Shown here one piece after another: positions 39,683 through 43,455 of a stretch of DNA of 64,000 nt. The stretch's first letter is position 1. Each line of letters opens with the position of its first letter. The notes below the pieces were generated by a model. That model did not search any database and had not been told where the DNA came from. It saw only the letters and a list, made by a program, of their open reading frames with translations. Both the position numbers and the translations under genes were made by a program. Source of the DNA: Escherichia coli (GTDB lineage: Bacteria > Pseudomonadota > Gammaproteobacteria > Enterobacterales > Enterobacteriaceae); the NCBI RefSeq assembly GCF_024700885.2, contig NZ_CP117016.1. The stretch is one strand, 5' to 3'.

Positions 39683-41023
39683 CTATATTAAGCGGATTTT
39701 CCCGGTTAACAGTTCCTGCATCATCCCTTGCTTAAGCTGGCGGGTTTTGTCCAGACGCTGTTGCAGGATCTGGATTTCCTTGTCCATATCGGAGAGGATG
39801 GCGGCGATGGCGGCTTGTTCTTCTGTATTTTCAGGTAATGGGATTTTAAAGCCCAACATATCTTTGTTAGTTATCTGATTGATAGTGGCACCCATAACTT
39901 CAGCGATTTGCTTTTGAATAATATCAGACTGGAATTGGTGAAATGTAAATCCATATATATCAGTTCGGAATACTGACATAAATGCACCGAATGCTGAGCC
40001 CTGCGCATTTTTGTCAATTAATGCGCATTTGCCAATAAGTTGGCGACTGCCATTTCTTACACATACCAAGATATCACCTTCTTTCACAATTGTACGCTCA
40101 GGTGGTTCTATGCTGACGAAGACGTTATCATCATAAGCTAAGTGATTATTTTGAATGTTGGATGAGCGTAATACCAATGTACCATAATCAGATGTATCTT
40201 CAGGTTTGTAAGTTAACCCAATAATGCAATTACCTAGCTCACCAAGATTAATACAATTCCAATCTTCAGGAATCTCCCCCAACTCGCTCTTTTTATATCC
40301 CTTAGCAGAGCCATCTTTGCGCAACGCAAACTGTGGCAAACGGGTTTTACCAGTCAGTAGTCGCTGCATAGTAGCGGTTTTAATGGCTTGTTTTTTAACG
40401 ATAAGCTTTTCTAGAGCTAGAATAAAATTATTAATATCAGATAATGAATCAGCAATAGCACTTTGCTCTTGCAAATTTGGGGGACATGGAATCAAATATT
40501 TTTCTATAGCAACTAGCGGCACACGACGGTGTCCCGCACTTCCCACCATTTCAGATTCCAGTGATGCTCTGAATTTTTTATCAGTTGTCCAAAAATAGAT
40601 GAAGCGAGAATCGGAGTCTTCATTTTCCCTTAATACATGAAATTCCGTACTCCCAAAACCTACATTAGTAGGTAAATCAGCGGTATGACATCCTTTTCCA
40701 TTTTCAAAACAAGGGGTTATTTTAGCTAATAAAACATCCCCTTTTTCAAAGTAAGTAAAACCACTTTTAACTTCTTTAAAAGGAAGTTGAGTATTATTTT
40801 TTAATTGTGCATCTTCACTAACATCCTGCATCCCAATAAATGAAACTAGCTCATAATCGCTGACTTTTTTTTTCTTTGTGTTTGTTTTAAACAGATTACC
40901 AAATGGTACGCAATCCCAATCCTCAGGAATCACGCCCACCTCAGTCAGTTTATACCCCGCAGGCACATCTTTCCCCGCCGTACTCGACCGTTGCTCATTC
41001 ACCATTAAATCCACCATCACCAC
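39683..41023 (-). CDS. hsdS: Type I restriction-modification specificity subunit (HsdS)
   Basis: 446-aa with two target-recognition-domain-like halves separated by conserved repeat regions; overlaps hsdM stop. Confidence 0.75.
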   Translation of the reverse strand: MVMVDLMVNEQRSSTAGKDVPAGYKLTEVGVIPEDWDCVPFGNLFKTNTKKKKVSDYELVSFIGMQDVSEDAQLKNNTQLPFKEVKSGFTYFEKGDVLLAKITPCFENGKGCHTADLPTNVGFGSTEFHVLRENEDSDSRFIYFWTTDKKFRASLESEMVGSAGHRRVPLVAIEKYLIPCPPNLQEQSAIADSLSDINNFILALEKLIVKKQAIKTATMQRLLTGKTRLPQFALRKDGSAKGYKKSELGEIPEDWNCINLGELGNCIIGLTYKPEDTSDYGTLVLRSSNIQNNHLAYDDNVFVSIEPPERTIVKEGDILVCVRNGSRQLIGKCALIDKNAQGSAFGAFMSVFRTDIYGFTFHQFQSDIIQKQIAEVMGATINQITNKDMLGFKIPLPENTEEQAAIAAILSDMDKEIQILQQRLDKTRQLKQGMMQELLTGKIRLI

Positions 41024-43455
41024 TCCAGCCCCATCGCCCGCAAATGCTCGGCCACTTTCTCGCTCAACGCCTCAACGGAGGCTTCAAGCGCTAGCAACGG
41101 TTCAGCATAACGCTCTTCCAGCTCCTTTACGCGCGACGCCAGTTGCTGGGTAATACGCTCAATCTCCGCCTTGATCCCTGCCTGCAACGTTGCCAGCCAC
41201 TTATCCTGCACTACCAGCGTTTTAATCGCTGCTTCATCCAGCGTGGGATAATGTTTAAACACCGCCCGATCCAGCGCTTCTTGTGCGGCTTTCAGCGCTT
41301 TTTTCGCACTGGCTTCGGCCTTAATTAGCGCCAGGCAGCGGTTCAGCACTGCCAGCTCATCTGGGCCGGCAGTGGTTTTCTTTAACTGTGCTAGACGGGC
41401 ATTCACCAGCTTTTGCGTCACCTTATCTTTATCGTTCTTCGCCTCGGCCAGCAGATCCTCTTCACCTGCCTGCTCCTCGATGAATTCCACTAGCTGACGA
41501 CTGGCTTCTTCACTGCGCTCCTGCGCGCGGTTCAGCGCATCCAGCAGTTCCGGGAAACAGCGAATTTCCACCAGCGAACGGGGCAGCACATCGGCCTTGT
41601 AGCGCCGTTTGGTAAACTCGAAATCGTGCGTTTCTTTCCAGATGTTTTTGCCATCTTTGCCTTTCACCGGCTGAAGCTCGCGGATTTGCGCGGCGGCTTG
41701 CCAGCCATCCTGCATAATCGCATACACATCGTCTTGCATGACATCAGTCCAGTAATCCATCAGGATCTGGTACACGCTGTATTTGTTCAGCAACTCACTG
41801 TTGGCGTACTGCGCCAATAGCATTTCGCTGATATCGTGGATTAGCGCTTTGGGTTTATCACCTTTGCGAATCTCTTCCAGACTTGCCTCTTTCACCCACG
41901 CTTTAAACGGTAGCAGGCTGCGGGTGGCAAAATCCTTAAACTCCTGATGCGCCAGAATGGTCGGTTTCACCTGTTGCGCGTTCACCTGCGCCCGACAGTA
42001 ACCGGGACGGTCGTCAGCAAACAGCACGTTGCGCAGGGCAGGGAATACCCGCCAGTAATCTTGCAAAGCATCCACATCGCGTGCCGGAATACCGCCCTGT
42101 AAGTGCGCGGTCAGATCGTGTAAATCTTCCGGCTCGCCGCTCTCGATATAGCGAGGAATATTCAGGTTGTAATCATTTCCGGCGATCTCGCTGGAGGGCA
42201 CCATCCGGCTGTAGCCAGGTACCGTTCGCTGATGGTTGAACACGTCCACAATGCGGTGAATATCTCGGCTACGCAGGCGGTTCTTGTTGCCATCTTTGAT
42301 AAAGCCCCGGCTGGCGTCGATCATAAAAATGCCTTTGCGGCTGTGGGCGTGCTCTTTATCAATCACAATGATGCACGCCGGGATGCCGGTGCCGTAAAAC
42401 AGGTTGGCTGGCAAACCAATAACGCCTTTGATATAGCCCTGCTTGATTAGATTTTCACGGATATTCGCTTCGGCGTTACCGCGAAACAGTACGCCGTGGG
42501 GCAGGATCACCGCGCCTTTGCCGGTACTTTTCAGGCTTTTAATGATATGCAACAAAAAAGCATAATCGCCGTTTTTTTCCGGCGGAATACCCCAGCCGAA
42601 GCGTTCAAACGGATCTTTTTTCGGCGTCAGCCCGTTGGTCCAGTTTTTATTGGAAAAAGGCGGGTTCGCCACGGCAAAATCGAAGGCTTTCAGTTTGCCG
42701 TTCGCCTCTTTCCACTGCGGATCGCTCAGCGTATTGCCCTGCCAGATTTTCGCGGTGGCATTGTTATGCAGAATCATGTTCATCCGCGCCAGCGCACTGG
42801 TAGCGTTATCCATCTCCTGGCCGAAAATCGACAGTCCGCGCCGGGCTTCATCATTCACTTTCAACAGCAGCGAACCAGAGCCACAGGTTGGGTCATAAAC
42901 CGTTGCATCTTGCGGAGTATCGGGAGTAATACCAATCACCTTCGCCAGAATACGTGACACCTCCGCTGGAGTGTAAAACTGCCCTTTACTCTTACCGGAT
43001 TCGGTTGCGAAGTGACGCATCAGATATTCATAGGCATCGCCCAGCAGATCGTCGCCTTCGGCCCGGTTGCTGGAGAGATTTAACCCTTCAAAGATACCGA
43101 CAAGCTTGCTCAGGCGGTCAATCATTTCCTTGCCTTTGCCGAGCTTATCTTCGTCGTTAAAGTCGGCTTCGTCGATGACGCCCTTCAGGCCGTTCTCTTC
43201 CGCCAGCTTGTGGATGATTTTGTTGATTTTGTCGCCGATCTCTTTGTCATTTTTCAGCGCAACCATATCGTCAAAGCTGGCTCCTTTGGGTATCACGATC
43301 ATCCCGTAAGGATCGCCTTTATACTTATCGGAAACGTACTTCATAAACAGCAGGGTCAGTACATAGTCTTTGTACTGGCTGGCGTCCATCCCGCCACGCA
43401 GTTCGTCGCAGCTTGCCCACAGGGAAGAATAGAGTTCGGTTTTTTTGATAGCCAT
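41017..43455 (-). CDS. hsdM: Type I restriction-modification DNA methyltransferase (HsdM) with long C-terminal coiled-coil-rich extension
   Basis: 812-aa; N6-adenine MTase motifs YDPTCGSGSLL (motif I) and VANPPFS (motif IV); C-terminal ~300 aa Ala/Glu/Lys/Leu-rich. Confidence 0.8.
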   Translation of the reverse strand: MAIKKTELYSSLWASCDELRGGMDASQYKDYVLTLLFMKYVSDKYKGDPYGMIVIPKGASFDDMVALKNDKEIGDKINKIIHKLAEENGLKGVIDEADFNDEDKLGKGKEMIDRLSKLVGIFEGLNLSSNRAEGDDLLGDAYEYLMRHFATESGKSKGQFYTPAEVSRILAKVIGITPDTPQDATVYDPTCGSGSLLLKVNDEARRGLSIFGQEMDNATSALARMNMILHNNATAKIWQGNTLSDPQWKEANGKLKAFDFAVANPPFSNKNWTNGLTPKKDPFERFGWGIPPEKNGDYAFLLHIIKSLKSTGKGAVILPHGVLFRGNAEANIRENLIKQGYIKGVIGLPANLFYGTGIPACIIVIDKEHAHSRKGIFMIDASRGFIKDGNKNRLRSRDIHRIVDVFNHQRTVPGYSRMVPSSEIAGNDYNLNIPRYIESGEPEDLHDLTAHLQGGIPARDVDALQDYWRVFPALRNVLFADDRPGYCRAQVNAQQVKPTILAHQEFKDFATRSLLPFKAWVKEASLEEIRKGDKPKALIHDISEMLLAQYANSELLNKYSVYQILMDYWTDVMQDDVYAIMQDGWQAAAQIRELQPVKGKDGKNIWKETHDFEFTKRRYKADVLPRSLVEIRCFPELLDALNRAQERSEEASRQLVEFIEEQAGEEDLLAEAKNDKDKVTQKLVNARLAQLKKTTAGPDELAVLNRCLALIKAEASAKKALKAAQEALDRAVFKHYPTLDEAAIKTLVVQDKWLATLQAGIKAEIERITQQLASRVKELEERYAEPLLALEASVEALSEKVAEHLRAMGLEW

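Follow-up and report, generated by a model that had tools for sequence, protein, structure and literature searches.

The window, a stretch of 64,000 nucleotides from Escherichia coli (contig NZ_CP117016.1), carries an hsdM gene for an 812-residue modification subunit of a type I restriction-modification (R-M) system, in which the methyltransferase core is followed by a long C-terminal extension. Sequence comparisons identify this long HsdM as the standard form of a distinct, widespread and catalogued type I R-M clade, and structure prediction indicates that the extension is a real, confidently folded domain without relatives among solved structures or in Pfam. The extension is probably a clade-specific module with an architectural role, inserted in the long HsdM of this clade. 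Of the roles offered for it by an initial annotation made from the sequence alone, mediation of assembly would be the most plausible.

Architecture of the Long HsdM

By every sequence criterion tested, the 812-residue protein is the HsdM subunit of a type I R-M system. Its open reading frame (ORF) was found present and intact where the initial annotation had placed it, at 41017-43455, and lies on the minus strand, which that annotation had not given; the peptide quoted there, EEDLLAEAKNDKDKVTQKLVNARLAQLKK, is found in the translation. The two domains of the core are recognized by Pfam (Table 1), the hsdM equivalog model of NCBIfam (TIGR00497) gives 282.8 bits against a cut-off of 242.75, and both the S-adenosylmethionine (AdoMet) motif DPTCGSGS at residue 188 and the catalytic motif NPPF at residue 264 are intact. 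The HsdM annotated in the RefSeq record (WP_000985465.1) is 100% identical across the gene. The gene is encoded alongside hsdR and an hsdS with two recognition domains, and the predicted activity of its product is adenine methylation of a bipartite target as an M2S1 complex.

The initial annotation had pointed to an extra C-terminal region beyond that of typical HsdM proteins, and this is borne out. The Pfam methyltransferase match ends at residue 441 and solved HsdM chains (445-544 residues, with one of 638) align to residues 1-453 only, so that ~370 residues lie past the catalytic domain, making the protein ~300 residues longer than canonical HsdM. Residues 441-812 have no match in Pfam, even at E ≤ 10, and none in NCBIfam or PHROGs, and a sequence search of the PDB with the extension returned one chance match with an E value of 0.32.

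AlphaFold2 predicted the extension alone (59-sequence alignment) with a predicted local distance difference test score (pLDDT) of 95.9 and a predicted template modelling score (pTM) of 0.87, and full-length HsdM (37-sequence alignment) with a pLDDT of 87.8 and a pTM of 0.80; the full-length model and its alignment lack Met1 and are therefore numbered one below the protein, while 440 is added to positions of the C-terminal model to give residue numbers. The models divide the extension into two halves. Subdomain 1 (441-624) is globular and mostly helical with two small β elements, and includes the most conserved motifs of the extension, HLQGGIP (451), YQILMDYW (562), MQDDVY (573) and DGW. Subdomain 2 consists of long helices spanning residues 635-662, 681-694, 698-738, 741-783 and 787-807.

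The description of the region as coiled-coil-like and rich in Ala, Glu, Lys and Leu holds for part of it only. The combined content of these four residues is 53.7% in the second half (625-812), whereas it is 33.7% in residues 441-624 and 29.5% in the core. Helices of 41-43 residues are indeed predicted, but residues 441-624 form a globular α+β unit and, in a crude test of heptad a/d positions against shuffled sequences, helix 635-662 scored above the shuffles (p = 0.015) and the other four of the five did not. Because only one helix in five exceeds the shuffles, "bundle of long helices" is a safer term than "coiled coil." The extension is mildly acidic, with a net charge of -11 (-5 and -6 for the two halves), which argues against direct DNA binding.

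The Long Form Is a Family Trait

The best 120 full-length homologues are all 797-832 residues in length, with 72-100% identity, and come from Serratia, Klebsiella, Pectobacterium, Photorhabdus, Shewanella, Microbulbifer, Halomonas, Proteus, Providencia and other hosts; the 90% cluster containing the exact HsdM protein has 835 member sequences. When the extension was searched alone against 1.84 billion representative proteins (50%-identity clusters), 2,302 clusters were matched at E ≤ 1e-3 and 1,234 at E ≤ 1e-10, and in full-length members the extension begins at ~440-466 and runs to the end of the protein. A scan of one genome per species, using a profile from a 9-sequence alignment, revealed relatives of the extension in at least 551 species genomes. 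These include Gamma-, Beta-, Alpha- and Zetaproteobacteria as well as Desulfobacterota, Campylobacterota, Cyanobacteria, Planctomycetota, Nitrospirota, Chloroflexota and Coriobacteriia.

The long form is also covered by existing detection profiles. The PADLOC-DB type I methyltransferase profile PDLC03027 aligns HsdM residues 1-812 to positions 1-810 of 810 with 1426 bits, and the extension is covered by three further long MTase_I profiles (PDLC03022, PDLC03031 and PDLC03032); all four are detection profiles with no functional or structural description of the extension attached. Several other PADLOC profiles for type I methylases, 700-1,236 positions long, cover the core only, so that long HsdMs with other tails exist as well. 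The suggestion that the length is simply characteristic of one type I subfamily is thus supported by a full-length architecture common to the homologues, by the 810-position profile and by a near-identical system in enteropathogenic E. coli (EPEC), described below. Since the homologues share the full-length architecture, the extension is a family trait and no local novelty.

That the long ORF is an artefact, fused by a sequencing error or by annotation joining two genes, has practically no likelihood. One homologue does appear as two adjacent genes of 409 and 396 residues, but it comes from an assembly of 2.27x coverage. Many complete E. coli genomes have the uninterrupted ORF on the chromosome with 100% identity, 248 of 5,426 genomes hold a copy spanning 80% or more of the query, and the intact reading frame is conserved across hundreds of species. 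An apparent stand-alone copy of the extension (P0002) traces to a split gene in a 2.27x assembly. Among the relatives there is also a protein of 1054 residues (P0369), in which the N-terminal and helicase domains of HsdR are linked to the last part of an N6_Mtase domain plus the extension; either a genuine R-M fusion or a chimera of the assembly could explain it.

The C Terminus and the Proposed Role of the Extension

The hsdM stop codon and the hsdS start codon overlap by one nucleotide (TGATG), as do those of EcoKI, and the tail of canonical HsdM follows the helices of HsdS to a point close to where a recognition domain begins (PMC3510504). Three natural fusions (P0298, P0289 and P0264; 1014-1037 residues) pass from the extension straight into one HsdS recognition domain, resembling the "Type IMS" form made artificially from EcoKI. 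In the case of P0298 (L089:376-3420), the genes for HsdR and the peptidase then follow and there is no separate hsdS at the locus. A short HsdM of 507 residues, encoded on the Klebsiella conjugative plasmid NZ_CP138780.1, is 41% identical to residues 2-449 and then continues for ~30 residues to an end, ...EVEMAGYLKELGYGA, that resembles the consensus end of the long family, ...KVAGHLKxMGLxW. A profile built on the final 60 residues of long-form HsdMs matched the last ~22 residues of short HsdMs, in register, with E values of 0.002-0.03; these were computed within a set of 120 short HsdMs that are close relatives of one another, and the tail match therefore amounts to a single weak observation. 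Taken together, the tail match, the one-nucleotide overlap, the path of the canonical tail and the recognition-domain fusions lead us to infer that a ~340-residue module has been inserted between the catalytic domain and the HsdS-binding terminal helix, rather than appended to the protein.

Such a module would comprise subdomain 1 (441-624), which is acidic, globular and helical, and, as its second part, the long-helix bundle of residues 625-~786. The terminal helices may anchor HsdM to the coiled coil of HsdS (the spacer), the 41-43-residue helices being of roughly the same length as those of that spacer. The globular subdomain would give the M2S1 or R2M2S1 complex an additional surface peculiar to the clade, for example one contacting HsdR or the second HsdM.

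Several points weigh against this architectural interpretation. The contacts of the extension with HsdS and HsdR are putative. The similarity to canonical tails is weak, at 7-11 bits and in one group of short HsdMs, and the profile of the last 60 residues, when run against all PDB sequences, gave generic coiled-coil matches and no HsdM. The extension also diverges faster than the core, with a median identity to the query of 54% versus 81% and a lower value in all 73 of 73 loci. This would also fit a surface under diversifying pressure, such as that from phage anti-restriction proteins, and leaves room for less likely readings in which the extension docks a peptidase, is coupled to embedded genes or responds to DNA mimics. 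In addition, the phage protection described for the EPEC system is not assigned to R-M as distinct from DarTG2 (PMC12255303).

Genes Associated with the Long HsdM

A gene for a YgjP-like M48 peptidase is found directly after hsdR in all 50 of the 50 loci with a complete hsdR and downstream DNA. This linkage is an association found in the present analysis and not a published definition of the clade, and PADLOC has no model for the YgjP-like M48 peptidase. It raises the possibility that the extension is a docking site for the peptidase, or its substrate, and that proteolysis controls R-M, for example as alleviation after acquisition or DNA damage. The constancy of the linkage, the retention of the peptidase gene beside the fusion variant P0298 and the joint divergence of the extension and peptidase genes are all in keeping with this, yet such a function is unlikely. 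The Klebsiella plasmid with the 507-residue HsdM also has a peptidase gene after hsdR, encoding a protein 31% identical to that of the window, so that the peptidase does not need the extension; this also rules out an exclusive association of the M48 peptidase with long-HsdM systems. Correlated divergence is expected from shared ancestry alone, and the divergence of the extension gave positive partial correlations with that of HsdR and of the peptidase, but every other pair did so too, and the test is not discriminating. The peptidase query had matches in 355 Klebsiella plasmid records. Closer peptidases are encoded on Acetobacter and Rhizobium plasmids, where the HsdMs are 813 and 801 residues long.

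The second role proposed by the initial annotation, sensing of the neighboring toxin system, is not supported by the related loci. The proteins of the window were compared by tblastn with 80 such loci (L006-L085). DarT or DarG is present in nine of the 80, and the extension is kept in the 71 that lack DarTG, including loci with no insert between hsdS and hsdR; one locus reads hsdM (820 residues)-hsdS-hsdR-ygjP, with nothing embedded and the extension retained. These comparisons indicate that the extension is independent of DarTG and is not a device of one locus. RptR is encoded in 15 of the 69 related loci with enough upstream DNA. Only hsdS lies between hsdM and hsdR in 10 of 63 loci and more than hsdS in the other 53, for which reason the clade is regarded as a frequent carrier of embedded genes; where such genes are present, the distance from hsdM to hsdR has a median of 4.2 kb and reaches 8.2 kb. 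In a Proteus locus (L005), genes for GmrSD_N, AAA_15, SLFN/HATPase and other proteins take the position of DarTG, and at another locus (L090) the embedded genes encode RES and Fic proteins. Embedded genes in type I systems are noted by others as well (PMC12255303; bioRxiv 10.1101/2024.01.29.577857). Overall, the gene order of the clade, as read from these loci, is (rptR)-hsdM-hsdS-(variable embedded genes)-hsdR-ygjP-like peptidase.

The frequency of inserts might suggest that the extension couples the R-M complex to the embedded genes, holding DarT latent or sensing the failure of restriction in the manner of EcoprrI and PrrC; the masking of PrrC by EcoprrI is a precedent for a toxin held in check by an R-M system (bioRxiv 10.1101/2024.01.29.577857). 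Coupling of this kind is distinctly unlikely here, as the extension is retained where nothing is embedded, the inserts are mutually unrelated (DarTG, GmrSD_N/AAA_15 and RES/Fic), DarTG occurs in so few of the loci and it has its own antitoxin. Moreover, EcoprrI belongs to type IC, the family of EcoR124, and as the solved EcoR124 HsdM is 520 residues in length, the masking of PrrC would need no such tail. The present analysis yielded no evidence for control of DarT by the R-M complex of the window.

A further alternative is that the extension counters DNA-mimic anti-restriction proteins such as Ocr and ArdA, either by shielding the DNA-binding groove or by sensing them. Ocr, encoded by phage T7, is ordinarily an inhibitor of type I enzymes. 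The EPEC island lowers T7 plating ~1000-fold (PMC12255303), although this protection may stem from DarTG2. The mildly acidic character of the extension and its faster evolution relative to the core can be read in the same direction, but faster divergence is common in non-catalytic domains and there is no pointer to such a function in the sequence or fold of the extension, so that this alternative is very improbable. A broader form of these ideas, in which the module is no passive spacer but a functional hub of the clade that ties the core to the M48 peptidase or to anti-restriction proteins, with restriction switched by proteolysis or by sensing of an inhibitor, is given a slim chance.

The RRDM Island

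The order of genes in the RefSeq record, on the gene strand, is HTH-like protein (helix-turn-helix), HsdM, HsdS, DarT, DarG, HsdR and M48 metallopeptidase (Table 1). Gene content and order identify the locus as the RptR-HsdM-HsdS-DarT-DarG-HsdR-M48 (RRDM) island, already published from EPEC E2348/69 (Zhang et al., Nucleic Acids Res 2025, PMC12255303). The EPEC island has the same seven genes in the same order, the accessions of DarG (WP_000634203.1) and the M48 peptidase (WP_001122107.1) are identical, and the promoters share the -35 element TTGAAC and three 6-bp RptR sites overlapping the -10 region. The accessions of HsdM (WP_000985465.1 here, ...463.1 in EPEC), HsdS, HsdR, DarT and RptR differ, and these proteins are consequently regarded as allelic variants of those of EPEC; the difference in HsdS probably gives the island of the window a different target sequence. 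The whole EPEC island protects E. coli DH5alpha against several phages (PMC12255303). Phage resistance has thus been demonstrated for the EPEC allele only. Neither term searches of that article nor two of its Results sections gave any mention of the length or tail of HsdM.

Table 1. Positions of hsdM, the parts of its product and the other elements of the island within the window
Feature	Position	Strand	Basis or remark
hsdM, 812 residues + stop	41017..43455	minus	ORF translation, ATG start
HsdM N-terminal domain, residues 10-121	43093..43428	minus	PF12161, E 2.4e-17, 64.3 bits
N6-adenine methyltransferase domain, residues 135-441	42133..43053	minus	PF02384, E 6.7e-104, 348 bits
Extension subdomain 1, residues 441-624	41584..42135	minus	AlphaFold model, conserved columns
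Extension subdomain 2, residues 625-812, Ala/Glu/Lys/Leu-rich long-helix bundle	41020..41583	minus	
Terminal helix and C terminus, residues 787-812 (...SEKVAEHLRAMGLEW)	41020..41097	minus	candidate counterpart of the HsdS-binding tail
hsdS, 444 residues from ATG, two target-recognition domains	39683..41017	minus	PF01420 in two stretches
darT, DNA ADP-ribosyltransferase toxin between hsdS and hsdR	39014..39670	minus	NF048013, 262.6 bits; PF14487
darG, antitoxin, WP_000634203.1	37950..39017	minus	NF048014, 451 bits
hsdR, 1031 residues	34836..37931	minus	TIGR00348, 546 bits; Pfam HSDR_N, SWI2_SNF2, T1R_D3-like
YgjP-like M48 metallopeptidase, WP_001122107.1	34120..34836	minus	PF01863, E 1.3e-61
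rptR, 79-residue repressor of the island	43495..43734	minus	PF24718 HTH_73, annotation, PMC12255303
Island promoter, three RptR sites in TTTAGCTAATTTAGCTAACTTATCTAT	43757..43800	minus	sequence, match to elements of PMC12255303

In the promoter, the RptR sites read TAGCTA, TAGCTA and TATCTA and lie at 43757-43783, with the -35 element at 43795-43800. The ORF list places the start of rptR at a TTG at 43800, which would run into the promoter; the annotated 79-residue rptR is preferred.

The flank on the hsdR side (~29500-34100) holds an IS600 fragment (IS, insertion sequence), a fragment of an EspI autotransporter gene, a broken IS5, an AraC-family gene and a frameshifted IS3, and these decayed elements fit horizontal acquisition of the island. 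On the other side, an antirestriction protein gene lies at 54475-54960, ~11 kb from the type I system and in the same mobile region, among genes (44733-57000) for an Ag43-family adhesin, IrmA, DUF905, DUF932 and YeeS; it is curious for one island to hold an anti-restriction gene along with a type I R-M system. The Ag43/yeeS/antirestriction flank and the flank of IS fragments are reminiscent of the CP4-44 prophage region in E. coli K-12.

As a finding in this window, the long HsdM is a minor one, because such proteins are the rule in a clade already catalogued and the locus has been published as a defence island. Its interest lies at the level of the family, where at least 551 species share a module of ~370 residues that is predicted to fold with high confidence and has no Pfam family, solved relative or described function. 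The clade in question has a peptidase gene almost without exception, and between hsdS and hsdR it mostly holds further defence genes. Solving the M2S1 or R2M2S1 complex of the clade would reveal a new design of type I enzyme and might explain why defence genes are so frequently embedded in its loci.

Comparison with Known Type I Systems

The canonical HsdM structures used for comparison were the M subunit of PacII (7vru/7vs4) and the HsdMs of Streptococcus thermophilus (3lkd), EcoR124I (7bst) and EcoKI (2ar0/2y7c). All share the N-terminal domain and the γ-class N6-adenine methyltransferase fold with the HsdM of the window, and Foldseek matched them with E values of 2e-29 to 2e-17, target-normalised template modelling (TM) scores of 0.64-0.80 and identities of 19-33%. 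The canonical operons contain HsdS and HsdR, as does that of the window. The principal difference is at the C terminus, where canonical HsdMs, of 499-544 residues, end in a short helical tail, whereas the ~370-residue extension of the window protein has no counterpart in the solved structures.

In structure-based alignments, the HsdM of the window is 19% identical to EcoKI HsdM (2y7c_B) and 27-29% identical to EcoR124I HsdM. HsdM identities exceed ~90% within a family (type IB example) and are 25-33% between families (PMC2481252). By this identity rule, the sequence of the window HsdM places it outside families IA (EcoKI) and IC (EcoR124I). The hsdM of KpnBI, which represents type IE, may likewise be unusually long.

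The Klebsiella system of NZ_CP138780.1 has the same hsdM-hsdS-hsdR-peptidase order and similar last HsdM residues, and differs in its 507-residue HsdM, which extends only ~30 residues past the catalytic domain, and in its 31% identical peptidase. EcoprrI-PrrC, a type IC system whose embedded toxin PrrC is an anticodon nuclease, resembles the island of the window in the placement of a toxin-type defence gene between hsdS and hsdR, the position held here by DarT.

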